A stretch of DNA of 27,935 nt. It comes from a virus. The position numbers and the translations under genes were made by a program. Where the stretch lies: the UHGV virus genome UHGV-0119398, one strand, 5' to 3'. The notes under the pieces were generated by a model. It saw only the letters and a program-made list of their open reading frames with translations, was not told the origin of the DNA and ran no database searches. The number at the start of each line of letters is the position of its first letter. The first letter of the stretch is position 1. Below, one piece after another: positions 7,596 to 27,935 of the stretch.

Positions 7596-7604
7596 TGAGG
7601 GGGA

Positions 7605-11139: not shown

Positions 11140-11304
11140 TGATGCCTCGCCGTAGTGGATTCAGGGCAAGGCTACTTAATGGCCGTCAGTGATTCGCTAA
11201 GGTGCTGTTGTGTGGGCGGTTGTCCAGTCGTCATTGGTGGTCTGGTGTGTCCTGAGTCTGGAAACTGGCGGTGACCAGTAACCCCAACCTCAGGACTCCT
11301 GACA

Positions 11305-12159: not shown

Positions 12160-12234
12160 TAAACCGCAGACCGAAACCGGGCGGAACCCCCGCCCGATGC
12201 TGTGACTAACCGATTAATTCAAACAGGAAATACT

Positions 12235-13302: not shown

Positions 13303-13306
13303 GACC

Positions 13307-14056: not shown

Positions 14057-14149
14057 CTGAACGCTCCCCGAGCCGGGCGGCACGCCGGTCAAAGCGGGTT
14101 TTGACCCTGACGGCGACCGGCGTCCACCGCCCAACCTAATGAGGTTGTC

Positions 14150-14659
14150 ATGACGACAGTAATACTGAATCAGCCCGACGAACCGCAGGACGTACCGGGC
14201 GTGGTGATTCCCGCACCGGAGACGGGCGACGCAGTGATTAAAAACACGTTCTTTTTCCCTGATGTGGATCCGAAGCGGGTGCGCGAGCTGATGCGCCTTG
14301 AGCAGACGGTTTCCGATGCGCGTCTGCGTAACGCCATCAAGACCGGCATGGCGGAAACCAATGCGGAGCTTTACGACTACCGGCTGCGCCAGATTGCCGC
14401 CGGGTTTAAGGCACTGGCCGACGTGCCTGACGCTGAGGAAATCGACGGCGAGAATGTGCGCGTTTTCCACTACCTAAGCGCCGTGACGGCGATGGCGACC
14501 GCCACCCTGTATGAGCGTTATCGCGGCGTTGAGGCCACCGGCAAGGGTGACAAAAAAGCCGACAGCGTCGAAACCACCATTGATGACCTGTGGCGGGATA
14601 TGCGCTGGTCGGTCTCGCGCCTGCAGGATAAGCCGCGCTGCATCGTGGGTCAGCTCTGA
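14150..14659 (+). CDS. L: Head completion/stabilisation protein (gpL)
   Basis: 169 aa; MTT..LNQPDEPQDVPGVVIPAPETGDAVIKNTFFFPDVDPKRVRE... as in P2 gpL. Confidence 0.9.
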   Translation: MTTVILNQPDEPQDVPGVVIPAPETGDAVIKNTFFFPDVDPKRVRELMRLEQTVSDARLRNAIKTGMAETNAELYDYRLRQIAAGFKALADVPDAEEIDGENVRVFHYLSAVTAMATATLYERYRGVEATGKGDKKADSVETTIDDLWRDMRWSVSRLQDKPRCIVGQL

Positions 14660-14862
14660 TGAAAGTTTACGCGATGCAGGGCGACACCCTCGACGCGCTT
14701 TGCGCCCGGTATTACGGGCGCACTGAAGGCGTGGTCGAGACGGTGCTGCAGGCTAATCCCGGTCTGTCTGAGCTGGGCGTCATTCTGCCGCATGGCACGG
14801 CGATTGACCTGCCCGACGTAGAAACATCACCCACGGCGGAGACCCTGAACCTATGGGACTGA
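14659..14862 (+). CDS. X: Tail protein X (LysM-like)
   Basis: 67 aa, same length as P2 gpX; MKVYAMQGDTLDALCARYYGRTEG...; ATGA overlap with L. Confidence 0.85.
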   Translation: MKVYAMQGDTLDALCARYYGRTEGVVETVLQANPGLSELGVILPHGTAIDLPDVETSPTAETLNLWD

Positions 14863-14864
14863 GT

Positions 14865-15074
14865 ATGGAAAAAATCACCACGTTTATCGCCTACTGGCTG
14901 GCCGTGGGTCTGGCGTATTTCGGGGCAATGTCGCCCGAAAAGCTGGCGCTGTATGTGGGTAGTCTGTGCGCCATTTTTACGGCGGCGGTGAATTTCTGGT
15001 ACCGGCGCAAAACCTTTCGTTACCTGACCGAAATGGGAATCGACAAAGGGGTGACCCGTGAGCTCAATCGTTAA
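14865..15074 (+). CDS. Holin candidate (two predicted transmembrane helices)
   Basis: 69 aa from ATG 14865 (GGGA SD 6 nt upstream); two hydrophobic segments with a charged C-terminus; first gene of the lysis cassette after X. Confidence 0.6.
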   Translation: MEKITTFIAYWLAVGLAYFGAMSPEKLALYVGSLCAIFTAAVNFWYRRKTFRYLTEMGIDKGVTRELNR

Positions 15075-15570
15075 ACGTTGCAGCGTGGCCGCAGTGCTGG
15101 CGCTGGCGGCACTGATGCCTGATTTTCGTCTGCTGAATACCTCGCCTGATGGTCTGGCGCTGATTGCCGACCTCGAAGGGTGTCGCCTGAAACCTTACCA
15201 GTGCAGCGCGGGCGTGTGGACGTCAGGCATCGGCCACACTGCCGGGGTGGTACCGAAACGCGATATCACCGAGCGCGAAGCGGCGGCAAATCTGGTCGCC
15301 GACGTGCTGAATACCGAGCGCCGTCTCGCGGTCTGCGTACCGGTCACCATGCCGCAGCCGGTTTACGACGCGCTGGTCAGTTTCTCTTTTAACGTCGGCA
15401 CCGGCGCGGCCTGTCGCTCGACGCTGGTCTCTTACATCAAGCGTCATCAGTGGTGGCAGGCATGCGACCAGCTTACCCGCTGGGTGTACGTCAATGGCAC
15501 TAAAAACAAAGGGCTGGAAAACCGCCGCGCGCGGGAACTGGCGTATTGCATGAAAGGAGTAACCCAATGA
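15058..15570 (+). CDS. K: Endolysin, T4-lysozyme-like (GH24) with N-terminal signal-anchor-release (SAR) segment
   Basis: 170 aa from GTG 15058; Ala/Gly-rich weakly hydrophobic N-terminus (CSVAAVLALAALM); lysozyme core LEGCRLKPYQCSAGVWTSGIGHT matches the EG.RLK.Y....G..T.G.GH signature. Confidence 0.8.
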   Translation: MSSIVKRCSVAAVLALAALMPDFRLLNTSPDGLALIADLEGCRLKPYQCSAGVWTSGIGHTAGVVPKRDITEREAAANLVADVLNTERRLAVCVPVTMPQPVYDALVSFSFNVGTGAACRSTLVSYIKRHQWWQACDQLTRWVYVNGTKNKGLENRRARELAYCMKGVTQ

Positions 15571-15998
15571 AAAAATATTTACGTTCCCTGATGTTCGATG
15601 CCCTGCTGGCACTGTTGCTGCTTTGGGGGCTGGTATCGCCGCAAAGCGCTGCCGTTAATTTTGTGGCCGCATGGGCGTTGTTTGGCAGTTTTGTCTGCAT
15701 TACGGCGAGCCTAGCCGGTGTGGTCGCCTATGAGCACTGGCTGCGAAATACCGGCAAAAGTATTCCTGTCAATCCAGACCTGATGAAGGTCTTTCGCGTC
15801 GTCTTTTGTCGCAAACCTTCGCAGGCGCGCCACGCATGGTCTCTCATTATTTTCTCTGTTACCACGGGCTGTCTGCTTGGGGCTGGCTGGATCCTTACGG
15901 CTCTGATTTACCTGATTTGTATGCTGACCTTTAAGGCCGTTCGCGAGACCTACCGCCAGCGCATTGAGGGGGCTGGTCTGTGTCCAGAGTCATTGTGA
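15567..15998 (+). CDS. lysA: LysA-like multi-pass membrane protein (lysis timing)
   Basis: 143 aa from ATG 15567 (AAAGGAG SD); several hydrophobic helices; position after the endolysin as in P2. Confidence 0.65.
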   Translation: MKKYLRSLMFDALLALLLLWGLVSPQSAAVNFVAAWALFGSFVCITASLAGVVAYEHWLRNTGKSIPVNPDLMKVFRVVFCRKPSQARHAWSLIIFSVTTGCLLGAGWILTALIYLICMLTFKAVRETYRQRIEGAGLCPESL

Positions 15999-16408
15999 TG
16001 TTTCTGGCCTCTGCGCTGGTGCTGGCTGTGCTCGGGCTGCTGTGGTTGCACCATGAGAACGGCAATTTATCCCGCTCCTTTGAGACAGCAAACCGCGTCG
16101 CGAGCGAACAAAAGACGACGATTGGCATGCTGAAAAATCAGCTCAGTGTTGCCGGTCAGCTTGCCAAACGTAATGAATCTGCGCAGGTGGCACTGCGTGA
16201 ACAGCTCGCAAAGGCTAGCGAGGAAGCCAGCCGCCGTGAACAGACGATAACGAGGTTACTTAATGAAAATGAAGCCTTTCGCCGCTGGTATAACGCTGCT
16301 CTGCCTGACGTTGTGCGTCGGCTGCACACCCGCGCCGCCTGCGCCAGCGCCGGTGATTGTGGTCAGCGGATGCCCGAGGGTGAGCCTTTGCCCGATGCCG
16401 GGAAGTGA
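15980..16408 (+). CDS. lysB: LysB, Rz-like inner-membrane spanin
   Basis: 142 aa; N-terminal transmembrane helix then a charged coiled-coil-like region; apparent GTG start (ATG at 15998 is an alternative). Confidence 0.7.
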   Translation: MSRVIVMFLASALVLAVLGLLWLHHENGNLSRSFETANRVASEQKTTIGMLKNQLSVAGQLAKRNESAQVALREQLAKASEEASRREQTITRLLNENEAFRRWYNAALPDVVRRLHTRAACASAGDCGQRMPEGEPLPDAGK

Positions 16409-16553
16409 CCCGAAAACCAATGGTGACCTGAGCGCGGATATCCGCCGCCTTGAGGGCGCGCTGACCGCCTGCGCGCTGCAGGTCAAAACCGTCAAACACT
16501 GTCAGGATGAACTCGATGCAGAAGCACAAAAGCCTGCGCAAAGCGCTGATTGA
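16263..16553 (+). CDS. lysC: LysC, Rz1-like outer-membrane lipoprotein spanin, embedded/overlapping in another frame
   Basis: 96 aa; signal peptide with Cys cluster LTLCVGCTPAPPAPAP followed by a Pro-rich stretch; starts inside lysB and extends past it, as in P2 lysB/lysC. Confidence 0.7.
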   Translation: MKMKPFAAGITLLCLTLCVGCTPAPPAPAPVIVVSGCPRVSLCPMPGSDPKTNGDLSADIRRLEGALTACALQVKTVKHCQDELDAEAQKPAQSAD

Positions 16554-16983
16554 CGCCGTGCCGCAGCTCCGAAACAACCCCGATATGCTGCGCCTGTTTG
16601 CTGACAACGGCCATACAGATTCCCGGCTGGCGAGCTCGCTATCGTTTGAAAAAGTGTACGTGCTTAACGTGGTGGTGACCGACTTCACCGGTGACCTCGA
16701 TTTGATATTCGTGCCGGTGCAGGCGTGGCTGCGTGAGCATCAGCCGGACATTATGACCACCGACGACGGGCGGGAAAAAGGATTCACCTGGATTATTGAT
16801 ATCAATAACGACGATTCACTCGATATCAGTATCAGCCTGAGGCTCACCGAGCGCACGCTCGTCAAAGAGGTCGACGGCGCGCTGCATGTCAGCTATGCCC
16901 CTGAGCCGACGCTTCCTGAGCCGGTAACGCGCCCGGTCGAGCTTTACGTTAACGGCGAACTGGTGAGTAAGTGGGATGAGTGA
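16516..16983 (+). CDS. R: Tail completion protein R
   Basis: 155 aa from ATG 16516 (AGGATG SD); LRKALIDAV...NPDMLRLFADNG...SLSFEK.Y.LNVVVTDFTGD... matches P2 gpR. Confidence 0.85.
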   Translation: MQKHKSLRKALIDAVPQLRNNPDMLRLFADNGHTDSRLASSLSFEKVYVLNVVVTDFTGDLDLIFVPVQAWLREHQPDIMTTDDGREKGFTWIIDINNDDSLDISISLRLTERTLVKEVDGALHVSYAPEPTLPEPVTRPVELYVNGELVSKWDE

Positions 16984-17425
16984 GTTAACCGCGCTGCAGG
17001 AACGTCTTGCCGGTCTGATTGCCAGCCTGTCACCGGCGGCGCGTCGGCAAATGGCGGCTGAGATTGCGAAAAAGCTGCGTACCAGTCAGCAACAGCGCAT
17101 CAAGCGCCAGCAGGCACCCGACGGCACCCCGTATGCGGCGCGAAAGCGCCAGCCGGTGCGGAGCAAGAAAGGCCGCATTAAGCGCGAAATGTTCGCCAAA
17201 CTGCGCACCAACCGCTTTATGAAAGCCAAAGGCAGCGACAGTGCGGCGGCGGTGGAGTTTACCGGCAAGGTGCAGCGCATGGCGCGGGTGCATCAGTACG
17301 GCCTCAAAGACCGACCAAACCGCAACAGCCGGGATGTGCAGTACGAGGCGCGCCCGTTACTCGGTTTCACCCGCGACGATGAGCAGATGATTGAAGGCGT
17401 CATTATCAGGCACCTCGGCAAATAA
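16976..17425 (+). CDS. S: Tail completion/virion morphogenesis protein S
   Basis: 149 aa; position and length as P2 gpS; start overlaps the end of R. Confidence 0.85.
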   Translation: MSELTALQERLAGLIASLSPAARRQMAAEIAKKLRTSQQQRIKRQQAPDGTPYAARKRQPVRSKKGRIKREMFAKLRTNRFMKAKGSDSAAAVEFTGKVQRMARVHQYGLKDRPNRNSRDVQYEARPLLGFTRDDEQMIEGVIIRHLGK

Positions 17426-17493
17426 ATATTGTGTGAACCACCACCGGAGCCGCGCGAATTGGCGCGGCTCCAGACCAGAGGCATCCTTGCACT

Positions 17494-18129
17494 ATGAATA
17501 CGCTATCCACGATACAGGAGCTCGCGCGCGCGATTCGCAACCTCATCCGCTCAGGTGTGGTGACTGAGGTCGATACCGTGCAGGGGCTGTGCCGCGTACA
17601 AAGCGGCGGGATCCAGACTACATGGCTGAACTGGCTGACCACCCGCGCCGGTCGCTCGCGGACGTGGTGGGCTCCCTCGGTCGGTGAGCAGGTGTTGCTG
17701 CTGGCAATCGGTGGCGAGCTTGATACCGCTTTCGTGCTGCCGGGTATTTTCTCCGACGATAACCCCGCCCCGTCTGCCTCGGCGGATGCGTGGCATGTGG
17801 CTTTCCCTGATGGTGCGGTCATTGAGTACGAGCCCGAAACCGGCGCGCTGACGGTCAGCGGCATAAAAACGGCCGACGTGACGGCATCGGAGTCCATCAC
17901 CGCAACCGTGCCGCTGGTACTGGTGAAAGCCTCGACCAGTATCACCCTCGACACCCCGGAGGTGATTTGCACCAATAAGCTGACGACGGCGACGCTTGAG
18001 GTGCAGAAAGGCGGCAAGATGAGCGGAAATATCGAACATTCCGGCGGGTCACTGTCGTCTAATGGCAAGGTACTCCACACCCATAAACACCCGGGCGACA
18101 GCGGCGGGCAAACGGGGGCACCGTTATGA
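17494..18129 (+). CDS. V: Baseplate spike protein V
   Basis: 211 aa, same length as P2 gpV; first gene of the V-W-J-I-H-G block. Confidence 0.88.
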   Translation: MNTLSTIQELARAIRNLIRSGVVTEVDTVQGLCRVQSGGIQTTWLNWLTTRAGRSRTWWAPSVGEQVLLLAIGGELDTAFVLPGIFSDDNPAPSASADAWHVAFPDGAVIEYEPETGALTVSGIKTADVTASESITATVPLVLVKASTSITLDTPEVICTNKLTTATLEVQKGGKMSGNIEHSGGSLSSNGKVLHTHKHPGDSGGQTGAPL

Positions 18130-18473
18130 CGGCGCGCTATCAGGGTATGAACCGAAATACCGGCCTCGGCATCAGCGACACTGAGCACATCAGCCAGAGC
18201 ATGCGCGATATTCTGCTGACGCCGGTCGGCTCGCGGGTGATGCGTCGTGAATATGGCTCGCTCCTGTCGGCGCTGATTGATATGCCGCAAAACCCGGCGC
18301 TCAGGCTGCAAATTATGGTGGCGTGCTATTCGGCTATCCAGAAGTGGGAGCCGCGCATCAGGCTTACCTCTGTCAGCTTTGAGACCGGCGACGCTGGCGA
18401 GATGTATGTCGATATTACCGGGATGCGTACCGATACCGGTGCGTCAGTTTCAACCACTGTTTCACTGAGTTAA
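18126..18473 (+). CDS. W: Baseplate protein W (gp25-like)
   Basis: 115 aa, same as P2 gpW; ATGA overlap with V. Confidence 0.88.
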   Translation: MTARYQGMNRNTGLGISDTEHISQSMRDILLTPVGSRVMRREYGSLLSALIDMPQNPALRLQIMVACYSAIQKWEPRIRLTSVSFETGDAGEMYVDITGMRTDTGASVSTTVSLS

Positions 18474-18479
18474 ATCACT

Positions 18480-19388
18480 ATGGCAAACGTTGACCTGAGT
18501 CAGTTACCCGTTCCCGATGTGGTTGAGGAACTGGACTATGAAAACATCCTTGCGGAACGCATTGCGACGCTGATTTCGCTCTATCCCGAAGACCAGCAGG
18601 AGGCCATTGCCCGGACACTGGCGCTTGAGTCAGAGCCGATTGTTAAGCTGCTGCAGGAAAACGCCTACCGTGAAGTTATCTGGCGTCAGCGGGTGAACGA
18701 AGCCGCGCAGGCGGTAACGCTGGCCTATTCCGCCGGTAGCGACCTCGACGCCATGGCCGGGAACAACAATACCGAACGTCTGACCATCACCCCGGCGGAT
18801 GACACCACCATTCCGCCGACGCCTGCCGCTATGGAGTCCGATACCGACCTGCGTCTGCGCGCACAACAGGCATTTGAGGGGTTAAGCGTGGCGGGGCCGG
18901 TCGGCGCATATGAGTATCACGGTCGCAGCGCCGACGGGCGGGTCGCCGACGTTTCGGTCGCAAGTCCGTCGCCAGCCTGCGTGACGATTACGGTGCTATC
19001 GCGCGAGGGTGACGGCACTGCCAGCCCTGAACTACTGGCGATTGTTGATAAAGCGCTGAATGCCGAAGATGTGCGCCCGGTGGCCGACCGGGTGACCGTC
19101 CAGTCAGCCGAGGTTGTGTCATACCAGATTGACGCGACGCTCTACGTTTACCCCGGTCCCGAATCTGAACCCATCAGACAGGCATCAGAGCAGAAGCTGC
19201 AGAGCTACATCAGCGCGCAGCACCGCCTCGGTCGTGATATCCGTCTGTCGGCCATTTACGCGGCACTGCATGTTGAGGGGGTGCAGCGTGTCGAGCTGGC
19301 ATCACCGCAGGCCGATATTGTGCTGAGTAAGTCGCAGGCGTCGAACTGCACCGAGTATCAGATAACTATCGGGGGCTCGGATGAGTGA
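18480..19388 (+). CDS. J: Baseplate protein J
   Basis: 302 aa, same as P2 gpJ; conserved position. Confidence 0.9.
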   Translation: MANVDLSQLPVPDVVEELDYENILAERIATLISLYPEDQQEAIARTLALESEPIVKLLQENAYREVIWRQRVNEAAQAVTLAYSAGSDLDAMAGNNNTERLTITPADDTTIPPTPAAMESDTDLRLRAQQAFEGLSVAGPVGAYEYHGRSADGRVADVSVASPSPACVTITVLSREGDGTASPELLAIVDKALNAEDVRPVADRVTVQSAEVVSYQIDATLYVYPGPESEPIRQASEQKLQSYISAQHRLGRDIRLSAIYAALHVEGVQRVELASPQADIVLSKSQASNCTEYQITIGGSDE

Positions 19389-19989
19389 CCGATTGTTACC
19401 CGTTGGTTCGTCGCCGCTGGAGGTTGCCGCCGCTGCCGCGCTCTCTGAGATTCAGCGCGTGCCGGTACCGCTGCGCACCCTGTGGAACTGGCGCACCTGC
19501 CCGGTAAAACTTCTGCCGTATCTGGCGTGGGCGCTGTCGGTCGACAGGTGGGATGAGAAGTGGCCGGAGGCGACAAAGCGCAGCGTCTGTGCCTCCTCGT
19601 TTTTCGTCCATCAGCACAAAGGCACTATCAGCGCATTGCGTCGGGTGGTCGAGCCGCTCGGCTTTCTGATTGAGGTGCGCGAGTGGTGGCAGCTCGACGA
19701 GGAGCCAGGCACATTCCGCCTCGTTGTCGGCGTGCTCGATAGCGGCATCACTGACGAAATGTATCAGGAGCTTGAGCGCCTGATTGAAGACGCCAAACCA
19801 GCAAGTCGCCACATGACCGGGCTGGCTATCAGCCTGAGTGCAACCGGCGAGCTGTATGTCGGCGCGGGATGTTACGACGGCGACGCGCTGACCGTTTACC
19901 CCTACACCCCAGAGGAAATTGTCGTCGGCGGTGAATATTACCCGGCCTCGGCCATCCATTTGATTGATAACCTGAGAGTGAACGCATGA
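19381..19989 (+). CDS. I: Baseplate/tail protein I
   Basis: 202 aa; position between J and H; start overlaps the end of J. Confidence 0.85.
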   Translation: MSDRLLPVGSSPLEVAAAAALSEIQRVPVPLRTLWNWRTCPVKLLPYLAWALSVDRWDEKWPEATKRSVCASSFFVHQHKGTISALRRVVEPLGFLIEVREWWQLDEEPGTFRLVVGVLDSGITDEMYQELERLIEDAKPASRHMTGLAISLSATGELYVGAGCYDGDALTVYPYTPEEIVVGGEYYPASAIHLIDNLRVNA

Positions 19990-20942
19990 CCGCAAAATAT
20001 TTTGCCATTCTGACCAATCAGGGCGCGGCGCGGCTGGCGAACGCGGCGGCACTCGGTACCAAACTCAACCTGACGCAGATGGCCGTCGGTGATGCAAATG
20101 GTACGTTGCCGACTCCTGACCCGGCGCAGACGAAGCTCATTAACCAGAAGCGCATCGCGCCGCTGAACCTGCTGACCGTTGACCCGGCCAATCCCAGCCA
20201 GATTATCGCGGAACAGATTATTCCCGAGAATGAAGGTGGTTTCTGGATCCGCGAGATTGGTCTCTATGACGATGACGGCATTCTGATTGCCGTGGCGAAC
20301 TGCCCGGAGACCTACAAGCCGCAACTGCAGGAGGGAAGCGGCCGCACGCAGACCATTCGCATGATTCTGATTGTATCGAGCACGGCGGCAATCACCCTGA
20401 AAATTGACCCGTCGGTCGTACTGGCAACGCGTCAGTATGTCGACGATAAGGTTATCGAGGTGAAAGCCTATGCTGATGACCTGATGAAAAAGCACCTTGA
20501 CGACGCAAACCCGCATAAACAATACCCACTGATTGCAAATGCGCTTAAAGAAATGTCTGACGCAGGTCTGGTGACAAAGATTTTTGAGAATCTAGGTTTG
20601 GGTGAGGGAGCAAAATTAGCAGCAGCTCAGGTTGTTGCCAACGTCACAGGGTATCTGATATTGCCTGTGAAAGTTAACGGAGTGGAGAGGTCATTGATTG
20701 TGCAATGGTTCGGGGCTGCAACCAGTGATTATACGACACCAGTATCAGTGAATTTTCCAATAGCATTCCCTAATGAATGCCTAATTCCTTTATTCAGCGA
20801 CGTATCAACGGGGGCTGTGGATTTAAGCTCAACCGCTGCTTATAACCTTGCTGCCGGGCGGGCGTATTACACGTCGGTCACCAAAACACAAATAACGTGT
20901 GCGGGATACGGCGGTTTTAGAGTTCTGGCTATTGGGTGGTGA
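19986..20942 (+). CDS. H: Short tail fibre protein H (conserved N-terminal anchor, divergent AT-rich C-terminal receptor-binding part)
   Basis: 318 aa; N-terminal ~170 aa match the P2 gpH N-terminus (...MAVGDANGTLP...GGFWIREIGLYDDDGILIAVAN...YKPQLQEGSGRTQTIRMILIVSS); the rest is unrelated and AT-richer. Confidence 0.8.
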   Translation: MTAKYFAILTNQGAARLANAAALGTKLNLTQMAVGDANGTLPTPDPAQTKLINQKRIAPLNLLTVDPANPSQIIAEQIIPENEGGFWIREIGLYDDDGILIAVANCPETYKPQLQEGSGRTQTIRMILIVSSTAAITLKIDPSVVLATRQYVDDKVIEVKAYADDLMKKHLDDANPHKQYPLIANALKEMSDAGLVTKIFENLGLGEGAKLAAAQVVANVTGYLILPVKVNGVERSLIVQWFGAATSDYTTPVSVNFPIAFPNECLIPLFSDVSTGAVDLSSTAAYNLAAGRAYYTSVTKTQITCAGYGGFRVLAIGW

Positions 20943-20947
20943 TAAAT

Positions 20948-21379
20948 ATGAATATGAGTATCTATTTTTCTGCATTGGAAAATGCTTTTTATTCCACGGA
21001 ATTAAAAAATGATTACATAGCGGCTGACAGTTGGCCGAAAGATGCCGCGATGGTTGATTATGATGTTTTTTTAGAGTTCGCATTAAACGAACCGCCGGAA
21101 GGTAAGAGGAGAGTTGCTGGTAGAGATGGTCTTCCTGCATGGGCTGATATCCCCCCCTTGTCTTATGATGAACAGGTGGCTATAGCTACAAACAAAAAGG
21201 CCGCACTGTTGGCCGAAGCCCAGGGCACAATCAGCCTGTGGCAAACCGAGCTGCAGCTCGGCATCATCAGCGACGATGACAAAACCAGCCTGATTGCATG
21301 GATAAAATACATTCAGGCGCTGAACGCGGTCGACACTTCCACGGCTCCGGGTATCGAGTGGCCGGTTAAACCGGAGTAA
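20948..21379 (+). CDS. G: Tail fibre assembly chaperone (gpG/Tfa family)
   Basis: C-terminal block ...LWQTELQLGIISDDDKTSLIAWIKYIQALNAVDTSTAPGIEWPVKPE is typical Tfa; start uncertain (GTG 20936, ATG 20948 or ATG 20954). Confidence 0.75.
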   Translation: MNMSIYFSALENAFYSTELKNDYIAADSWPKDAAMVDYDVFLEFALNEPPEGKRRVAGRDGLPAWADIPPLSYDEQVAIATNKKAALLAEAQGTISLWQTELQLGIISDDDKTSLIAWIKYIQALNAVDTSTAPGIEWPVKPE

Positions 21380-21384
21380 CGCAG

Positions 21385-21409
21385 GGCGGGCTGATGCCCG
21401 TCTTTTTTT
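21385..21409 (+). terminator. Rho-independent terminator after the tail-fibre operon
   Basis: GGCGGGC-TGAT-GCCCGTC stem-loop followed by a T7 run, just after the G stop. Confidence 0.6.
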
Positions 21410-21510
21410 CAATTTGTTTATGTGCCATCGGCCACCCATCGCCGACAAATAGCCCCTCACCAGACCAGTCAGGACAATAACACTCGCCCACTAACCACGG
21501 AGTTAACCGG

Positions 21511-22698
21511 ATGAGTGATTTTCACCACGGCGTACAGGTGCTTGAGATTAACGACGGCACCCGCGTCATTTCAACTGTCGCAACCGCAATCGTCGGCATG
21601 GTCTGCACGGCCAGCGATGCGGATGCCGAAACATTCCCCCTCAATGAGCCGGTACTGATTACCAATGTGCAGAGCGCCATTGCGAAAGCCGGTAAAAAAG
21701 GCACGCTGGCCGCATCCCTGCAGGCTATCGCCGACCAGTCAAAGCCCGTCACCGTTGTCGTGCGCGTTGCCGAAGGTGTCGACGATGACCCGGATGCAGC
21801 TCAGGCGCAGACCATTTCCAACATCATCGGCGGCACGGATGAGAACGGTAAATACACCGGTATCAAAGCGCTGTTGACTGCCGAAGCGGTCACCGGCGTT
21901 AAGCCGCGAATTCTCGGCGTGCCGGGTCTCGATACGCAGGAAGTAGCAACCGCGCTCGCGTCGGTCTGTATCAGCCTGCGCGCATTTGGTTATATCAGCG
22001 CATGGGGCTGCAAGACCATTTCCGAGGCGATGGCCTATCGCGAGAATTTCAGTCAGCGCGAGCTGATGGTCATCTGGCCTGACTTCCTCGCATGGGACAC
22101 CACCACTAACGCCACCGCAACAGCCTACGCCACCGCTCGCGCGCTCGGCCTGCGCGCCTACATCGACCAGACTGTCGGCTGGCACAAAACCCTGTCTAAC
22201 GTCGGCGTGCAGGGTGTCACCGGCATCAGTGCCTCAGTGTTTTGGGATTTGCAGGCATCCGGCACCGATGCTGACCTGCTCAACGAGGCCGGGGTTACGA
22301 CGCTGGTGCGCAAGGATGGTTTCCGCTTTTGGGGTAACAGCACCTGCTCTGATGACCCGCTTTTCCTGTTTGAGAACTACACCCGCACCGCGCAGGTGCT
22401 CGCCGACACGATGGCCGAGGCGCACATGTGGGCGGTCGATAAGCCCATCACCGCATCGCTCATCCGCGACATTGTCGACGGCATTAACGCCAAATTCCGC
22501 GAGCTGAAATCAAATGGCTACATCGTGGACGGTGAATGCTGGTTCGACGAGGAATCGAACGACAAGGAAACCCTCAAGGCCGGGAAACTGTATATCGACT
22601 ATGACTATACGCCGGTTCCACCACTGGAAAACCTGACCCTGCGCCAGCGTATCACCGATAAATATCTGGTGAATCTGGCCGAATCGGTCAACAGCTAA
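21511..22698 (+). CDS. FI: Tail sheath protein FI
   Basis: 395 aa (P2 FI is about 396); conserved position. Confidence 0.92.
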   Translation: MSDFHHGVQVLEINDGTRVISTVATAIVGMVCTASDADAETFPLNEPVLITNVQSAIAKAGKKGTLAASLQAIADQSKPVTVVVRVAEGVDDDPDAAQAQTISNIIGGTDENGKYTGIKALLTAEAVTGVKPRILGVPGLDTQEVATALASVCISLRAFGYISAWGCKTISEAMAYRENFSQRELMVIWPDFLAWDTTTNATATAYATARALGLRAYIDQTVGWHKTLSNVGVQGVTGISASVFWDLQASGTDADLLNEAGVTTLVRKDGFRFWGNSTCSDDPLFLFENYTRTAQVLADTMAEAHMWAVDKPITASLIRDIVDGINAKFRELKSNGYIVDGECWFDEESNDKETLKAGKLYIDYDYTPVPPLENLTLRQRITDKYLVNLAESVNS

Positions 22699-22713
22699 GG
22701 AGCCTGAAATAAC

Positions 22714-23232
22714 ATGGCACTACCCCGCAAACTCAAATATCTGAACATGTTCAATGATGGCCTGAGCTACATGGGCGTTGTTGAATCCGTGACGCTGCCG
22801 AAGCTGACCCGCAAGCTCGAAAACTATCGCGGCGGCGGTATGAATGGTGCGGCGGCGATTGACCTCGGCCTCGACGACGATGCGCTCACCGTCGAATGGT
22901 CTGTCGGTGGCCTGCCCGATGTGGCGCTGTGGGCGCAGTACGCCGCGCCGGGTGCTGACGCTGTGCCGTTGCGTTTTGCTGGCTCTTACCAGCGCGACGA
23001 CACCGGCGAAATCATCGCGGTCGAGGTGGTCATGCGTGGCCGTCATAAAGAAATCGACGGCGGCGAAAATAAGCAGGGTGAAAACACCTCGACCAAACTG
23101 TCGACCGTCTGCACCTATTACCGCCTCACGATTGATGGTAGCGACGTCATCGAAATCGACACCGTCAACATGGTCGAGAAGGTGAACGGCGTCGACCGCC
23201 TGGAACAGCACCGCCGCGCAATCGGGCTGTAA
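22714..23232 (+). CDS. FII: Tail tube protein FII
   Basis: 172 aa, same as P2 FII; follows the sheath gene. Confidence 0.92.
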   Translation: MALPRKLKYLNMFNDGLSYMGVVESVTLPKLTRKLENYRGGGMNGAAAIDLGLDDDALTVEWSVGGLPDVALWAQYAAPGADAVPLRFAGSYQRDDTGEIIAVEVVMRGRHKEIDGGENKQGENTSTKLSTVCTYYRLTIDGSDVIEIDTVNMVEKVNGVDRLEQHRRAIGL

Positions 23233-23295
23233 TTCCCTGACCGGTCAGCACTGCTGGCCGGTTATTAATCCCCATTCAGAGCAGAGAAAAACATC

Positions 23296-23631
23296 ATGGC
23301 AAAAGCACCACGCAAAACCGCTGAATTTGTTGATACGGCTGGCAATGAAATTGACACCGTAAACCCGAACGTCGTGACCCTCGACAAGCCGATTAAGCGC
23401 GCCGGTCAGACGATTGATAAAGTCACCCTGATTGAGCCGAACGCCGGTACCCTGCGCGGTGTCAGTCTGGCAGCGGTGGCGCAGTCCGAAGTCGATGCAC
23501 TGATTAAGGTACTGCCCCGCATGACCTATCCCGCGCTCACTGCGCAGGAGCTTACCGCAATGAACCTGCCCGATATGCTGTCGCTGGCCGCGAAGGTGAT
23601 TGGTTTTTTGTCACCGGCTTCGGCGGAATAG
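23296..23631 (+). CDS. E: Tail assembly chaperone E
   Basis: 111 aa; sits before the tape-measure gene; carries the T TTT TTG slippery heptamer near its 3' end. Confidence 0.85.
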   Translation: MAKAPRKTAEFVDTAGNEIDTVNPNVVTLDKPIKRAGQTIDKVTLIEPNAGTLRGVSLAAVAQSEVDALIKVLPRMTYPALTAQELTAMNLPDMLSLAAKVIGFLSPASAE

Positions 23632-23783
23632 ATTTCCCGCCTGACCTGTCGACCGATGACCTGATGGCGGATATTGCAGTGATATTCCACTGGTCGCCAT
23701 CAGAGCTCTATTCCCTGAGCCTGACCGAGCTCATCACATGGCGCGAAAAGGCGCTGCAGCGTAGCGGAAATCACAATGAGTAA
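23296..23783 (+). CDS. E': E+E' fusion made by programmed -1 ribosomal frameshift at TTTTTTG (23604-23610)
   Basis: Hand translation of the -1 frame from the slippery site gives ...FVTGFGGIDFPPDLSTDDLMADIAVIFHWSPSELYSLSLTELITWREKALQRSGNHNE with stop TAA at 23781-23783, matching the conserved P2 E' extension. Confidence 0.65.
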
Positions 23784-26220
23784 TAACCTGAGGCTTGAGG
23801 TATTGCTGAAAGCGGTCGACCAGGCGACCCGACCGCTTAAATCCATCCAGACCGCGAGTAAAACCCTGTCGGGCGATATTCGCGACACACAAAAAGGGCT
23901 GCGTGACCTGAACGGGCAGGCCGCGAAAATCGACGGCTTTCGCAAAACCAGCGCTCAACTGGCCGTAACCGGCCAGTCGCTGGAGAAGGCAAAGCGCGAG
24001 GCTGAAGCGCTTGCCACGCAATTCAAAAATACTGAGCGCCCGACGCGAGCGCAGGCACAGGTGCTCGAATCCGCAAAACGTGCCGCTGAGGGGCTGCAGG
24101 TTAAATACAACAGCCTCACCGAGTCGGTTAAACGCCAGCAACGCGAGCTGGGTGCCGCCGGTATCAATACCCGCAATCTGGCAAACGATGAGCGGGGGCT
24201 TAAAACACGTATCAGCGAGACGACGGCGCAGCTCAACCGGCAGCGTGAAGCATTGGCGAAGGTCAGCGCACAGCAGGCGCACCTAAACCGAGTGAAAGAG
24301 CGATATAAATCGGGTAAGGAGCTTGCCGGTAACATGGCCGCTGCAGGTGCTGCCGGGGTCGGTATTGCGACAGCGGGAACGATGGCCGGGGTTAAATTGC
24401 TGATGCCCGGTTATGACTTTGCGCAAAAAAACTCCGAGCTGCAGGCCGTGCTTGGGGTCGATAAGCAGTCTCCAGAAATGCAGGCTCTACGCAAACAGGC
24501 GCGTCAGCTCGGCGATAACTCAGCGGCCTCAGCAGATGATGCCGCCGCCGCGCAGATTATCGTAGCCAAATCTGGCGCAGATAAAGACGGCATAGTGGCG
24601 CAAACACCGGCCATTCTGAATATGTCGCTGGCAAATAAAAAAACTATGGAGGAAAACGCCGCTTTGCTTATTGGCACCAAATCGGCATTCGGGCTCGCAG
24701 ATGACAAGGCATCGCATATAGCAGATGTCATATCGATGGCGATAAATAAAACACAGGCATCATTTGAGGGATTAAACGACTCACTTACATATGTTGGTCC
24801 AGTTGCCAAAGATGCCGGTGTCAGCCTAGAAGAAACCGCCGCGATGCTGGGTGCGTTACACGATGCAAAAATCATAGGTTCGATGGCAGGAACCGGTAGC
24901 CGAGCTGTTTTAAGTCGACTGCAGGCTCCAACTGGCAAAGCCTATGATGCCATTAAAGAGCTTGGCGTTAAGACGATGGATAAAAAAGGCAATACACGGC
25001 CAATCTTTACCATCCTGAAAGAAATACAAGCCAGCTTTAAGCGCAACAACCTCGGTACAGGTCAAAAAGCCGAGTATATGAAAACGATATTCGGCGAGGA
25101 AGCCAGTTCCGCTGCAAGTGTGTTAATGGCCGCAGCGGCCAGTGGAAAACTGGATGAACTGACCAAGATAATTAAGGATTCTGACGGTAAAACCGAGGAA
25201 TTGGTTAAGGTCATGCAGGATAACTTAGGTGGCGACTTCAAAGAGTTTCAATCCGCTTATGAGGCCGTCGGTACCGACCTCTACGACCAGCAAGATAGCT
25301 CATTGCGTCAGCTAACTCAGACAGCAACACGGTATGTGCTAAAGCTTGATGACTGGATCAAAGACAACAAGGAGTTAGCGGAAACTATCGGCATCATCGC
25401 CGGTGGTGCGCTGGCGCTGATTGGTATCATCGGCGGCATTGGTCTCGTTGCGTGGCCGGTTGTCATGGGGATTAATGCCATTATCGCCGCTGCTGGCGTG
25501 CTGGGTACGGTCTTTACTGTCGTCGGTAGTGCCATTGCGACAGCGCTCGGTGCGATTACCTGGCCGATAGTGGCCGTCGGTGCGGCGATTGTGGCGGGGG
25601 CGCTACTCATCCGTAAATATTGGGAGCCCATCAGCGCATTTTTCTCGGGAGTGATTGAGGGCATCATGAGTGCCTTTGTCCCAGTCGGGGAAATGTTCGC
25701 TCCACTGGCTCCCATTTTTGATGGTCTCGGCGAGAAACTGCGCGGCGTCTGGCAGTGGTTTAAAGACCTGATAGCACCGGTTAAGGCCACGCAGGAAACG
25801 CTTGATAGCTGCAAAAATGTCGGCGTCATATTTGGTCAGGCACTGGCCTCTGCCTTGATGGCTCCGCTCAATGTTTTTAACAAGCTGCGCAGCGGTGTCG
25901 ACTGGCTTCTCGAAAAGCTCGGCATCATCAACAAAGAGTCGGACAGCCTCGACCAGACCGCCGCCAAAACCAATGCCGCCACACAGGGTAATTCCTACAT
26001 CCCGGCAACCAGCACATATGGCGGCTATCAGGCTTATCAGCCAGTTACCGCACCGGCGGGGCGCTCTTACATTGACCAGAGCAAAAGCGAATACAACATC
26101 AATCTGCCGGGAGGTGTTGCGCCGGGGCATCAGCTTGACAGACAACTACGCGACACGCTCGAACAGATTGAGCGCGATAAACGCGCCCGCCAGCGTGCCA
26201 ACATGACCCACGACTATTGA
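23776..26220 (+). CDS. T: Tail tape-measure protein T
   Basis: 814 aa (P2 gpT is about 815); coiled-coil-rich N-terminus, Gly/Ala-rich membrane-like segment; conserved position. Confidence 0.9.
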   Translation: MSNNLRLEVLLKAVDQATRPLKSIQTASKTLSGDIRDTQKGLRDLNGQAAKIDGFRKTSAQLAVTGQSLEKAKREAEALATQFKNTERPTRAQAQVLESAKRAAEGLQVKYNSLTESVKRQQRELGAAGINTRNLANDERGLKTRISETTAQLNRQREALAKVSAQQAHLNRVKERYKSGKELAGNMAAAGAAGVGIATAGTMAGVKLLMPGYDFAQKNSELQAVLGVDKQSPEMQALRKQARQLGDNSAASADDAAAAQIIVAKSGADKDGIVAQTPAILNMSLANKKTMEENAALLIGTKSAFGLADDKASHIADVISMAINKTQASFEGLNDSLTYVGPVAKDAGVSLEETAAMLGALHDAKIIGSMAGTGSRAVLSRLQAPTGKAYDAIKELGVKTMDKKGNTRPIFTILKEIQASFKRNNLGTGQKAEYMKTIFGEEASSAASVLMAAAASGKLDELTKIIKDSDGKTEELVKVMQDNLGGDFKEFQSAYEAVGTDLYDQQDSSLRQLTQTATRYVLKLDDWIKDNKELAETIGIIAGGALALIGIIGGIGLVAWPVVMGINAIIAAAGVLGTVFTVVGSAIATALGAITWPIVAVGAAIVAGALLIRKYWEPISAFFSGVIEGIMSAFVPVGEMFAPLAPIFDGLGEKLRGVWQWFKDLIAPVKATQETLDSCKNVGVIFGQALASALMAPLNVFNKLRSGVDWLLEKLGIINKESDSLDQTAAKTNAATQGNSYIPATSTYGGYQAYQPVTAPAGRSYIDQSKSEYNINLPGGVAPGHQLDRQLRDTLEQIERDKRARQRANMTHDY

Positions 26221-26233
26221 GGGGGATTAAACG

Positions 26234-26719
26234 ATGATGCTTGCTCTCGGAATGTTTGTGTTTGAACTTCGCACCCTGCCTTACCAGTCGATGCAGCATT
26301 CGAAAGATTATCGCTGGGTGTCCAATGACCGGGTGGGTAAACCACCTGCCTATCAGTTTCTTGGCGAGGGGGAAACCTCTATACAGCTTGCTGGTACGCT
26401 ATACCCCGCTATCACTGGCGGTTGGATCTCACTTAAGGCTGTAGAGGTGATGGCCAATGAAGGCAGAGCGTGGCCGTTGATAGAGGGAACCGGAAATATC
26501 CTCGGGATGTATATCGTCGATAAAGTATCGACTACACGCACCGAGTTTTTCAGTGATGGTGCGGCCAGAAAGATTGATTTCACGCTTTCGCTAAAACGGG
26601 TTGATGAATCGCTGACAGAGATGTTTGGTGACCTGAATAAACAGGCCAGTGAGCTTCTCGGCTCTGCCGGTAATTTGACAGATAAACTGCAGGGTATGCC
26701 CGGAGGTTTCACTGCATGA
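26234..26719 (+). CDS. U: Tail protein U
   Basis: 161 aa; position and size as P2 gpU. Confidence 0.88.
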   Translation: MMLALGMFVFELRTLPYQSMQHSKDYRWVSNDRVGKPPAYQFLGEGETSIQLAGTLYPAITGGWISLKAVEVMANEGRAWPLIEGTGNILGMYIVDKVSTTRTEFFSDGAARKIDFTLSLKRVDESLTEMFGDLNKQASELLGSAGNLTDKLQGMPGGFTA

Positions 26720-27885
26720 TAACGGGGATGGCAATTGACGCCGGTGCCAGCCTTGCACCGGCTTTTATGCTGACGCTGAACAGTCAGGACATTACCAGCA
26801 ACTTCAGCGACCGGCTGATTTCTCTCACCATGACGGACAATAGGGGCTTTGAAGCTGACCAGCTCGACATTGAGCTCGATGACACCGATGGGAAAGTCGA
26901 GTTACCCCTGCGCGGGGCAGTGCTGACGTTGTGGCTTGGCTGGCAGGGTTCGGCGCTGCTGAATAAGGGGGATTTTACGGTCGATGAGATTGAGCACCGG
27001 GGGGCTCCTGATACCCTGACCATCCGGGCGCGCAGCGCGGACTTTCGCGGCACGCTAAATTCCAGGCGTGAAGAGTCATGGCACGACACCACCATCGGCG
27101 AACTGGTCAGTACCATCGCAAAGCGCAACAAACTGACGGCCAGCATTGCGGAATCGCTGAAAAAAATCCCGGTACCGCATATCGACCAGTCGCAGGAATC
27201 CGACGCGGTATTTTTGAGTCGACTGGCTGACCGCAACGGGGCAACGGTATCGGTGAAGGCAGGGAAACTGTTGTTTCTGAAAGCCGGTAGTGCGATGACG
27301 GCCAGCGGCAAACCCGTCCCGCAAATGACGCTGACCCGCAGTGATGGTGACCGTCATCAGTTTGCCATTGCCGACCGTGGGGCTTATACCGGCGTCACTG
27401 CTAAATGGTTGCACACCAAAGACCCGAAGCCACAAAAGCAGAAAGTAACGCTGAAACGCAAGCCAAAAGAGAAGCACCTGCGCGCACTGGAACACCCAAA
27501 AGCAAAGCCGGTCAGCAAAAAGACAAAGGTCAAAAAAGAACAGGAAGCACGTGAGGGTGAGTACATGGCCGGTGAAGCCGATAACGTGCTGGCGCTGACG
27601 ACGGTCTATGCCTCAAAGGCACAGGCGATGCGCGCCGCTCAGGCTAAGTGGGATAAACTGCAGCGAGGCGTTGCGGAGTTTTCAATCACACTGGCGCTAG
27701 GGCGAGCGGATTTATTTCCTGAGACGCCTGTACGCGTGTCAGGCTTTAAGCGCGTCATAGACGAGCAGGCATGGTTAATCAGCAAGGTGATCCACAACCT
27801 CAATAATAACGGTTTCACGACGGGCTTAGAGCTTGAGGTTAAACTCTCCGATGTGGAGTACAGCTCAGAAGAAAATGAGGAGTGA
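26716..27885 (+). CDS. D: Tail protein D
   Basis: 389 aa (P2 gpD is about 387); last late gene before the expected ogr/attR, which are outside the window. Confidence 0.88.
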   Translation: MITGMAIDAGASLAPAFMLTLNSQDITSNFSDRLISLTMTDNRGFEADQLDIELDDTDGKVELPLRGAVLTLWLGWQGSALLNKGDFTVDEIEHRGAPDTLTIRARSADFRGTLNSRREESWHDTTIGELVSTIAKRNKLTASIAESLKKIPVPHIDQSQESDAVFLSRLADRNGATVSVKAGKLLFLKAGSAMTASGKPVPQMTLTRSDGDRHQFAIADRGAYTGVTAKWLHTKDPKPQKQKVTLKRKPKEKHLRALEHPKAKPVSKKTKVKKEQEAREGEYMAGEADNVLALTTVYASKAQAMRAAQAKWDKLQRGVAEFSITLALGRADLFPETPVRVSGFKRVIDEQAWLISKVIHNLNNNGFTTGLELEVKLSDVEYSSEENEE

Positions 27886-27935
27886 AAAAGCAAACCAAAA
27901 CTTGCAAATGCAATTTTGAAGTTTATTATTCCCTC

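Follow-up and report, generated by a model that had tools for sequence, protein, structure and literature searches.

The window analysed here, a stretch of 27,935 nucleotides of the viral genome UHGV-0119398, very probably carries a horizontally exchanged, mosaic host-recognition cassette, which consists of the tip of the tail fibre H and the N-terminal domain of the adjoining chaperone Tfa and is set into the backbone of a 186/PsP3-type Escherichia coli prophage. The cassette is marked by a step in base composition and by breakpoints in homology to close relatives, its domains are recognizable, and related cassettes occur in other phage backbones. Modular host-range cassettes of this kind are well known; the one in the window is a new allele, and its tip variant is rare. 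The features of the locus are listed in Table 1.

Table 1. Features of the fibre and chaperone locus (positions in the window)
Feature	Position	Strand	Remarks
Tail fibre gene H, 318 aa	19986..20942	+	ORF; PF12571 and PF21882; directly 3′ of the gpJ and gpI baseplate genes
H anchor domain, aa 1–150	19986..20435	+	PF12571, E 1.1e-63, profile 1–150 of 150; GC3 0.70
Low-GC block	20435..21200		Best two-change-point fit, 44.6% GC
H neck, aa 151–198	20436..20580	+	Predicted helical; AT-rich (GC3 0.49); more diverged than anchor
Degenerate Din-family crossover-like sequence (possible relic), TTTTTGAGAATC-TA-GGTTTGGGTGAG	20581..20606	+	Encodes ..FENLGLGE..; left cassette junction
Predicted receptor-binding tip of H, aa ~208–318	20607..20939	+	Gp53-like_C jellyroll foot, aa 237–318, at 20694–20939
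tfa gene, 143 aa from ATG 20948	20948..21379	+	Alternative starts GTG 20936, ATG 20954
Tfa N-terminal alpha/beta domain, aa 1–~71	20948..21160	+	Variable half, in cassette; lowest GC3 (0.33)
Tfa C-terminal helical domain, aa ~72–143	21161..21376	+	Conserved half, backbone (EtG) type; GC3 0.67
Terminator-like hairpin and T-run after tfa	21383..21414	+	Followed by FI at 21511

RESULTS

The window belongs to an Eganvirus-like prophage of E. coli

The host is E. coli, as positions 9986–27935 are 100% identical to a scaffold that continues into the E. coli rplS-trmD-rimM-rpsP genes. The window is 92–94% identical in nucleotide sequence to Escherichia phage Midge (PV287706), Klebsiella phage RCIP0057 (OR532851), 613R3 and Erwinia phage EtG (MF276773) across 83–94% of 25 kb; the identity to the Eganvirus EtG is 93.2% over 83% of 25 kb, and that to PsP3, SW9 and SEN1 is 87–89%. 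Both similarity and synteny place it among the Eganvirus-like Peduoviridae (186/PsP3/EtG group), and it carries P2-type int, repressor, replication, head, lysis and tail genes. Around the fibre the gene order is Baseplate_J (PF04865, 18480–19388), Tail_P2_I (PF09684, 19381–19989), H, tfa (Caudo_TAP) and the sheath gene FI (21511–22698).

A low-GC block spans the end of H and the beginning of tfa

An earlier note on this DNA had described the stretch from about H residue 170 to about codon 60 of tfa as AT-richer than the flanking late genes. The GC profile bore out the difference, with 44.6% GC inside the fitted block and 58.6% in the flanks (19000–22700), and the change-point fit indicates that the true block is slightly wider than the 20500–21120 given at first. 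The narrower stretch has 44.4% GC versus 56.8% for the late-gene region (7501–27935; z = −6.2); 0.5% of the 621-nt windows of that region are equally low, and every one of these starts within 20397–20580. Over the whole window only three 600-nt stretches are lower in GC than the dip, all of them in the lysogeny/early region.

The GC3 values showed the same step. Along H, GC3 was 0.70 (aa 1–150), 0.49 (aa 151–195) and 0.42 (aa 196–318), and along Tfa it was 0.33 (aa 1–66) and 0.67 (aa 67–141), with FI and FII at 0.71–0.73. The fall from 0.70 to 0.33–0.49 indicates that the dip sits at synonymous positions and is not an amino-acid effect. Its edges, however, were displaced from those proposed earlier: low GC begins at about H residue 151 rather than 170, and the foreign stretch, which does extend into Tfa, ends at about residue 70–76, in the inter-domain linker, instead of at about 60. 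The AT-rich zone thus begins about 150 nt 5′ of the sharp homology junction described below, within a neck common to the clade, implying that a single event with two breakpoints does not account for the entire dip. The homologous cassette in a Mu-like backbone of 57–58% GC is likewise AT-rich (47.8% in the S tip, 40.5% in the N-half of U).

Homology to close relatives is lost in H and regained in tfa

Comparison with Midge, RCIP0057 and EtG showed 92–100% identity up to about 20460 and unrelated sequence from 20581. Homology is lost at 20486–20596 and returns inside tfa at 21194–21329 (from 21194 in EtG), and the left transition is abrupt, taking place within about 60 nt. The anchor-coding sequence is 92–100% identical to those of Midge, RCIP0057, EtG and the P2-like prophage L021. 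Divergence starts at about H residue 160; in the neck bins 20461–20580 the identity to relatives falls to 67–90%, and that to EtG to 40–68%. The sharp junction lies at about residues 196–205 (NLGLG), a position shared with other backbones. This loss of homology between near-identical backbones, and its return in the second half of tfa, supports the horizontally exchanged receptor-binding cassette that the earlier note had proposed.

H carries a conserved anchor and a Gp53-like tip

The ORF and the full-length match to PF12571, the phage tail-collar fibre N-terminal family, confirmed that H is a 318-aa protein with the conserved N-terminal baseplate-anchoring region claimed for it. As a monomer the anchor was modelled with pLDDT <50, and this part of the model was left uninterpreted; in the neck region the AlphaFold2 model has helices at aa 160–170, 180–192 and 196–202. 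The extreme C-terminus matches PF21882 (Gp53-like_C; E 6e-10, 39.9 bits versus a cut-off of 24.9, profile 6–84 of 84). The tip model reached a pLDDT of 82–94 at aa 200–270 and 85–93 at aa 290–318, with 49–59 at aa ~271–290, and shows a jellyroll fold like that of the solved feet. Its five top Foldseek matches were R1/R2 pyocin fibres (6CL5, 6CL6, 6CT8 and 6CXB) and gp53 of Acinetobacter phage AP22 (4MTM), with E values from 2e-7 to 3e-4 and target-normalised TM scores of 0.50–0.58 versus foot-only chains. At the sequence level, aa 234–318 match the foot of the R1 pyocin fibre (6CXB/6CL5). The R-pyocin foot is a lectin-fold domain for which lipopolysaccharide (LPS) binding via distal loops has been proposed (PMC6363177); by analogy, the receptor of the H tip may be an LPS sugar.

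The tail fibre protein H of phage P2 is 669 aa long, and the short H of the window had been taken for a reduced form of it. This interpretation did not hold. The plaque-forming relatives have fibres of 324–327 aa, and in a comparison set of the 120 closest database proteins, with anchor and neck at least 91% identical to those of H, the lengths range from 237 to 358 aa with a median of 320 aa, indicating that a short H is normal in this clade and that no truncation has occurred. The long shaft and C-terminus of the P2 type (~669 aa) are lacking in the 318-aa H, whose tip is Gp53-like. A tblastn search of 50,697 phage records with the tip as query gave no match.

The junction motif N[LV]G[LV] is present in 110 of the 120 proteins, whose tips form 38 clusters at 50% identity; the tip of the window is common to only its own protein and one other (75%). 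A protein identical to H (P0149) is present in public metagenome assemblies. It was retrieved with the anchor as query and overlooked by a word-indexed protein search with the tip. The tip allele was found on 11 public contigs. Megablast of the tip against 5,426 complete E. coli genomes gave nothing beyond the first ~140 nt (neck), and tip scans of one genome per species, IMG/VR and JGI metagenomes gave no relative closer than 75–77% and identified no donor.

Tfa joins a variable N-terminal to a conserved C-terminal domain

Tfa matches PF02413 over aa 15–147 (E 7.1e-35, profile 3–131 of 131). The tfa start codon lies 6 nt past the H stop, with GGTGG 7–9 nt upstream of 20948, and a 143-aa protein called on a related contig (P0029) is 99% identical over the 141 aa compared. 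The Tfa model (pLDDT ~95) has an alpha/beta fold at aa 5–67 and helices at aa 73–103 and 109–127, with the domain boundary at aa 68–72, and Tfa shows a two-domain build of a variable N-terminal and a conserved helical C-terminal domain. The N-half is 57–58% identical in amino acids to that of the Tfa (U) behind related tips in Mu-like and P2-like prophages, versus 20–27% to the N-halves of Midge, RCIP0057 and EtG. The C-domain is 87% identical to an abundant family of 198-aa Tfa proteins (P0098) and 81% identical to EtG over aa 74–141, and among relatives the C-halves are 73–87% identical and the N-halves only 20–55%. These values, the full PF02413 match and the GC3 of 0.67 agree with the earlier observation that a conserved Tfa C-terminus resumes after the AT-rich stretch. 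In described Tfa proteins the N-domain is variable and fibre-binding and the C-domain is conserved (PMC9608196), and by analogy the N-domain would be the fibre-binding half here too.

The intergenic region between tfa and FI contains no cargo genes. Reverse-strand ORFs across the block (20829–21140, 21083–21460 and 19938–20522) have no Pfam match and were discarded as spurious.

The cassette is found behind unrelated fibre N-termini

The nearest relatives of the tip (73–77% aa identity) are in E. coli Mu-like and P2-like prophages, where the related tip follows either an S N-terminus of the Mu type or a third, unrelated one. Against the Mu-like prophage, identity was 75–76% in the tip, 57–58% in the Tfa N-half and 31–32% in the Tfa C-half, whereas against EtG it was 19%, 20% and 75%, respectively. 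The occurrence of the same block of tip and Tfa N-half behind unrelated Mu-like fibre N-termini is further support for horizontal exchange. The best tip relatives are 72% identical in nucleotides and 75–77% in amino acids, and no near-identical cassette was found in a different backbone. Tfa N-domains of the window's type (50–57%) also occur alongside tips just 14–32% identical, suggesting that the pairing of tip and Tfa is class-level and not one-to-one. Tail-fibre recombination hotspots have been reported in Eganvirus (PMC8986868), tail fibre and tfa gene swapping together with invertases at the Z/fun hotspot of P2-like phages (bioRxiv 10.1101/2024.10.15.618418), and horizontal exchange of fibre C-termini and chaperones by Haggard-Ljungquist et al. 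(1992), as cited in PMC8986868.

The left junction coincides with a degenerate crossover-like sequence

Related loci carry inverted-repeat sites, CTCTCGAAAACC-TT-GGTTTGGGAGAG, at the codons that encode the junction peptide. Scored with a position weight matrix, the sequence at 20581–20606 is the best site in the window, its score being reached in 1 of 100 shuffles, at 17.0 bits versus 26–31 bits for the sites of related loci; 4 of its 12 dyad positions match and its core is TA, not TT. Inverted-repeat and matrix scans found no inverted partner for it in the window. No PF00239 invertase was found in ORFs of at least 100 aa in 1–7600 or in the portal, J, I, H, Tfa, FI and D proteins, and the contig that is identical to 9986–27935 has none among its precomputed annotations either. 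None adjoins the block, where tfa is followed only by the terminator and FI, and there is no second, oppositely oriented tip and tfa, the reverse-strand ORFs in 19938–21460 being without Pfam match.

DISCUSSION

The origin of the block

Transfer would be unnecessary if the tip and the Tfa N-half had diverged in place under diversifying selection, with the low GC due to codon constraints that were relaxed or of another kind. Receptor-binding regions are indeed fast-evolving, the tips of Midge and RCIP0057, though different, are also lower in GC (GC3 0.42–0.52), and at 30% identity the Gp53-like tips are all linked. This explanation is nevertheless improbable. The flanks are 92–100% identical and the tip is without detectable nucleotide homology, with an abrupt change between the two; a tip and Tfa N-half 72% identical in nucleotides sit on unrelated Mu-type N-termini with a different Tfa C-half; the Tfa C-half is 87% identical to a family with a wholly different N-domain; and the identities of tip, anchor and Tfa halves are already visibly incongruent. 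Even less credit is due to the view that H is a truncated or decayed gene of a defective prophage and the AT-rich stretch degenerate, since the reading frames are intact with full-length Pfam domains in both proteins, the models of tip and Tfa are confident, the window retains its P2-type gene set, and the plaque-forming isolates Midge, RCIP0057 and EtG share the same architecture, in line with the median length of the relatives. Decay would be in keeping with an H of less than half the P2 length and with an element known from metagenome and sequencing-run (Logan) assemblies only, with no isolated phage.

Horizontal exchange as the preferred explanation leaves the manner of exchange to be considered. 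The closest relatives of the cassette are nearly always in invertible segments beside a Resolvase/HTH_7 invertase and an opposite second tip and tfa, with both orientations seen, and a crossover-like sequence lies at the junction of the window. An active phase-variable segment with two alternating tips, like Mu G, P1 C or e14 P, was nevertheless rejected as very improbable, because neither an invertase in the scanned ORFs nor an alternative tip or reverse-strand tfa was found, and the lone, low-scoring site has no inverted partner. It is possible, although we hold this only tentatively, that a Din invertase made the left junction between the crossover sites of co-resident prophages and that the cassette became frozen afterwards, when the invertase and the alternative arm were lost; the window may then preserve a frozen invertible-segment cassette that entered via a crossover site between Mu-like and P2-like prophages, with the degenerate 26-mer as its scar. 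The break in homology to every relative falls in or beside this 26-mer, the P2-like prophage L039, with an anchor 97% identical, still has the invertible arrangement, and another locus (L020), whose Tfa′ is truncated and whose invertase survives as an 80-aa fragment, looks like a decayed intermediate; a similar proposal by Sandmeier is cited in PMC8986868. However, the site forms part of the homologous cassette and of its conserved NLGLG peptide, and descent alone would lead one to expect it there; at the right junction, within tfa, no such site exists, which calls for one or more homologous or illegitimate events; and the upstream neck is likewise diverged and AT-rich.

A model for the exchange

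On the preferred reading of a horizontally exchanged cassette, H would be a short trimeric fibre whose anchor plugs into the gpI/gpJ baseplate and whose helical neck (aa 151–200) leads to a jellyroll foot (aa ~205–318) of the Gp53/R-pyocin type, which, judging from its homologues, most likely binds an LPS sugar. Tfa would fold this fibre, its N-domain (aa 1–~70) gripping the cognate tip, as homologous chaperones suggest, and its helical C-domain (aa ~72–143) driving trimerisation. Because tip and Tfa N-domain must match, they would move as one DNA block (~20581–21170). Recombination at two conserved junctions may have brought the block into the backbone, the left one being the NLGLG-coding sequence, a Din-family crossover site in relatives, and the right one the inter-domain linker of Tfa. 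The block would come from an AT-rich cassette pool common to enterobacterial P2-like and Mu-like prophages and would be fixed in one orientation here. Host range would be set by the tip and not by the near-identical backbone, and a host range differing from that of P2/186, as the earlier note predicted, is plausible.

Mosaic fibre/chaperone cassettes among P2-, Mu-, P1- and lambda-type phages are long-established biology, and horizontal tip exchange is a real but familiar route of phage host-range change. The locus described here is a cleanly bounded example of the smallest unit for receptor change, tip plus chaperone N-domain, with each junction placed to a precision of a few codons. Boundaries of this kind can serve in host-range engineering of P2-like phages, tailocins and phage-derived particles, and they aid host-range prediction from prophage sequence. 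If the tentative reading as a frozen cassette were general, Din sites would be universal docking points for tip trade among unrelated myoviruses, and the NLGLG peptide of many fibres would be a by-product of a DNA site.

Comparison with known systems

The backbone relatives Midge, RCIP0057 and EtG have an identical anchor, fibres of 324–327 aa and the same locus layout, but the tip and the Tfa N-half are particular to each phage, the tips being 19–29% identical to that of the window. In EtG the tip is not of the Gp53 type, Tfa is 197 aa long and, unlike in the window, two extra genes lie between tfa and FI.

The R-pyocin feet (6CL5, 6CL6, 6CXB and 6CT8) and AP22 gp53 (4MTM) are the best structural matches of the tip and share PF21882 with it, but the sequence identity is only 12–25%, the LPS-core specificity of the pyocins is not transferable to the H tip, and the pyocin fibres, of about 700 aa, have head and shaft domains that H lacks. 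For the chaperone, the counterpart is Tfa U of phage Mu (TfaMu, 5YVQ), of which residues 107–175 of chain 5YVQ_B match Tfa aa 70–141 (E 7e-7). Both proteins combine a conserved C-domain with a variable N-domain, which in the Tfa of the window is predicted to bind the fibre, although no sequence or fold match was detected between the two N-domains.

Din-type segments (Mu G/Gin, P1 C/Cin and e14 P/Pin) are found in E. coli Mu-like (L013–L015) and P2-like (L021 and L039) prophages, and these segments carry the closest relatives of the window's tip (75–77% aa) and Tfa N-half (57%). In Din-type segments the crossover site encodes the junction peptide NLGLGE, which is the same in the window. The window differs from them in having no invertase, second cassette or partner site, in its degenerate site and in a Tfa C-half of another type.

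The H/G module of P2, with its homologues Mu S/U, P1 S/U and lambda stf/tfa, is the classic example in which fibre C-termini and chaperones have been exchanged horizontally. The window resembles it in the order J-I-H-tfa-FI, in PF12571 in H and PF02413 in Tfa, and in a mosaic fibre C-terminus with an adjoining chaperone, the cassette being common to Mu-like prophages. Unlike in the 669-aa fibre of P2, the Gp53-like foot of the 318-aa H is placed directly on a short neck, and unlike in P2 H/G, only the N-half of Tfa moves with the tip.

A low-GC block spans the end of H and the start of tfa

Open reading frame mapping and Pfam scans show that the window is a P2-family prophage with the gene order integrase, DUF2511 gene, CI-type repressor, CII/CP76, replication protein A, portal, head, lysis and V-W-J-I-H-tfa-FI-FII-E-T-U-D. 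Over 25 kb, it is 92-94% identical at the nucleotide level to Escherichia phage Midge, Klebsiella phage RCIP0057, Escherichia phage 613R3 and Erwinia phage EtG (classified by ICTV in Eganvirus), and 87-89% identical to PsP3, SW9 and SEN1. An ENA metagenome scaffold matched positions 9986-27935 at 100% and, just past gene D, ran into rplS-trmD-rimM-rpsP, 100% identical to E. coli, indicating that the host is E. coli. In the repressor ORF, the CI C-terminal domain is preceded by two helix-turn-helix stretches in tandem, both matching Phage_CI_repr (PF07022); read from the internal Met it would give about 280 aa, with a duplicated DNA-binding domain. The DUF2511 gene, between integrase and repressor, resembles accessory cargo.

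The earlier note had proposed that a low-GC stretch at 20500-21120 is a horizontally exchanged receptor-binding module. The GC profile confirmed the stretch, with slightly wider boundaries given by the best two-change-point fit. In 200-nt sliding windows, GC fell from 0.55-0.65 to 0.40-0.475 in nine consecutive windows (starts 20400-21000) and had recovered by about 21200. The GC of 20500-21120 was 44.4% compared to 56.8% for the late region (z = -6.2), and the 0.5% of equal-sized late-region windows that were as low all overlapped the H-tfa locus. Third-position GC was 0.70, 0.49 and 0.42 in H aa 1-150, 151-195 and 196-318, and 0.33 and 0.67 in Tfa aa 1-66 and 67-141, demonstrating that synonymous sites, rather than amino-acid content, carry the step. 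Other GC dips of the window are listed in the table; the island that follows replication gene A may be a further cargo hotspot.

Coordinates and properties of the features discussed
Feature	Position (nt)	Length	Observation
DUF2511 gene	1124-1462 (-)
Lowest-GC segment of the window	1115-1714	600 nt	40.3% GC; DUF2511 gene inside
CI-type repressor ORF	1472-2506 (-)
Second-best matrix match	387-412		TTCTTCTTACCTTTGGTTTTGGTGAA; 16.5 bits; inside integrase gene
Low-GC island	6491-7090		42.8% GC; within 6446-7130
Largest ORF of 6446-7130 island	6446-6853		No Pfam match
H	19986-20942	318 aa	PF12571 and PF21882 matches
Two-change-point block	20435-21200		GC 44.6% inside, 58.6% outside
Identity to backbone relatives	to ~20460		92-100% per 60-nt bin; one bin 88-90%
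Identity, neck	20461-20580		67-90%; EtG 40-68%
Identity beyond neck	from 20581		None for Midge, RCIP0057 and EtG
Crossover-like site	20581-20606		TTTTTGAGAATC-TA-GGTTTGGGTGAG
tfa	20948-21379 (+)	143 aa	ATG 20948, start as set by gene callers on identical contigs
Tape-measure gene interior	24500-25500		Milder GC dip, ~0.50

The block encodes a fibre tip and the N-domain of its chaperone

In H, PF12571 covers aa 1-150 (the anchor) end to end and PF21882 (Gp53-like_C) matches aa 237-318. In an AlphaFold2 model built from 54 sequences, the anchor, which normally forms an interdigitated trimer, was poor, the neck was predicted to be helical and the tip was confident, with pLDDT values of 82-94 over aa 200-270 and 85-93 over aa 290-318 and lower ones at aa ~271-290. 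The top five Foldseek matches were R1/R2 pyocin fibres (6CL5, 6CL6, 6CT8, 6CXB) and Acinetobacter phage AP22 gp53 (4MTM), and phmmer aligned aa 234-318 to the R1 pyocin foot. The jellyroll foot of R pyocins is a proposed LPS sugar-binding domain (PMC6363177). The earlier note had also called H short in comparison with P2 H. The length of 318 aa stands, but H is not a cut-down P2 H: three isolated relatives (Midge, RCIP0057 and EtG) have 324-327 aa and the 120 closest database proteins 237-358 aa (median 320). A short fibre is the norm in this clade.

The tfa start codon is preceded by GGTGG, and the product matches PF02413 (E 7e-35). The Tfa model was very confident (pLDDT 95): aa 5-67 form an alpha/beta N-domain, and long helices follow at aa 73-103 and aa 109-127; a solved Mu Tfa chain aligned to the C-half only (5YVQ_B residues 107-175, E 7e-7). 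For Mu Tfa and Pam3 gp25, fibre binding has been assigned to the variable N-domain and trimerisation to the conserved C-domain (PMC9608196). Among eight H/Tfa pairs, a small and non-independent sample, identity to the window's tip tracked Tfa N-half identity (Spearman 0.77) but not C-half identity (-0.32). N-halves of the window's type (50-57% identical) were also paired with tips just 14-32% identical, implying that tip and Tfa are matched by Gp53-like tip class and not one to one.

Boundaries and relatives of the cassette

Identity per 60-nt bin was computed against Midge, RCIP0057, EtG and L021, a P2-like metagenomic relative. BLAST homology broke off on the left at 20596 (Midge), 20567 (RCIP0057) and 20486 (EtG), and was regained at 21329, 21290 and 21194, respectively. 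The C-half of Tfa (aa 74-141) is 87% identical to an abundant 198-aa Tfa family (P0098, 448 contigs) with a different N-domain, and 81% identical to EtG Tfa, placing the right junction in the Tfa inter-domain linker (~nt 21150-21195). Between tfa and FI, EtG (L003:3725-4485) carries two reverse-strand genes, one for a putative membrane protein and one for a DUF1493 family protein; in the window, this position, a known P2-like cargo hotspot, holds just a terminator and ~130 nt.

No tblastn match to the tip was found among 50,697 phage records, and the exact allele was not found in 5,426 complete E. coli genomes. The closest tips in a large protein collection were 73-77% identical, although the lack of a closer hit needs caution, as a word-indexed search with the 128-aa tip missed P0149, a protein identical to the window's H that was found by the anchor query only. 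These tips stood behind three N-termini: a P2-type anchor, a Mu-type S ('MHRIDTKTAQ...') and a third type ('MAGTNDFKAF...'). The loci of Mu type are tail modules that include homologues of Mu gp45-48. After the fibre gene come, in this order, a Tfa of 139-143 aa, a second Tfa and fibre tip in convergent orientation, and a Resolvase/HTH_7 invertase, the classic G-segment layout. The same layout occurred in the third context and in several P2-like loci, and in those loci the cassette lay either way relative to the anchor.

The window's cassette was 72% identical to a Mu-like cassette at the nucleotide level over 20570-20950, an unbroken stretch that includes the H stop and the start of tfa, and its Tfa was 57-58% identical to Mu-like prophage Tfa in the N-half and just 31-32% in the C-half. 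The homologous cassette is equally AT-rich in a Mu-like backbone of 57-58% GC, indicating that the 'foreign' composition is a property of the cassette pool.

In P2-like relatives with 68-97% identical anchors (L021:3000-5560, L020:3000-5560, L039, L040, L024 and L026), a Din-invertase invertible segment that holds two tfa genes and a pair of alternative Gp53-like tips separates H from the sheath gene. An E. coli contig (L043:1317-4028) combines the related tip and an alternative tip of Collar type with two tfa genes and an invertase, directly adjoining the chromosomal-looking genes YCII, 4HBT, IspA and UPF0259. No other phage genes were called on the ~3 kb beyond this invertase, and none of any kind in the 1.3 kb that precede the fibre gene; the segment is possibly a stand-alone remnant of an invertible fibre module.

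Origin of the junctions

Taken together, the results support the interpretation of the block as a horizontally exchanged host-range cassette made of a tip and the fibre-binding half of its chaperone. Anchor and neck are conserved on one side of it, and the Tfa C-domain on the other. Homologous recombination on conserved junction sequences would be the simplest account of the exchange. Among 120 proteins sharing at least 91% identity with the window's anchor and neck, an N[LV]G[LV] motif was present at the junction position in 110, and the tips fell into 38 clusters at 50% identity, the window's tip grouping with one other protein.

For the left junction, capture through an invertase site, followed by invertase loss, is a live alternative. 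Segments in invertible relatives are bounded by 26-mer inverted repeats (CTCTCGAAAACC-TT-GGTTTGGGAGAG, encoding ..ENLGLGE..), which we take to resemble hix/gix/cix sites, and the window has a similar sequence at the exact end of homology to the backbone relatives. With a matrix derived from four sites of invertible relatives, it scored 17.0 bits compared to 26-31 for those sites, the top score in the window and one reached in 1 of 100 shuffles. A decayed intermediate exists in L020, a degraded counterpart of L021 in which the second tfa is truncated and the Resolvase (invertase) is an 80-aa fragment. The window's site has poor dyad symmetry (4/12) and a different core dinucleotide (TA vs TT), no partner was found in the window and no invertase was encoded among the scanned ORFs. 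We read this site as a relic that came with the cassette and not as a working site. The second-best match is probably due to chance. The neck upstream of the left junction is AT-rich and more diverged, suggesting that the exchange history comprised more than one event.

As cited in PMC8986868, phages of the P2, Mu, P1 and lambda types have mosaic fibre and chaperone genes in common, known since 1992; the same paper reports Eganvirus tail fibre genes as a recombination hotspot. Swapping of fibre/tfa genes and frequent invertases have been described at the P2-like hotspot before FI (bioRxiv 10.1101/2024.10.15.618418). The block is thus a known kind of fibre/chaperone mosaic, and what is new here is a rare allele at this locus.
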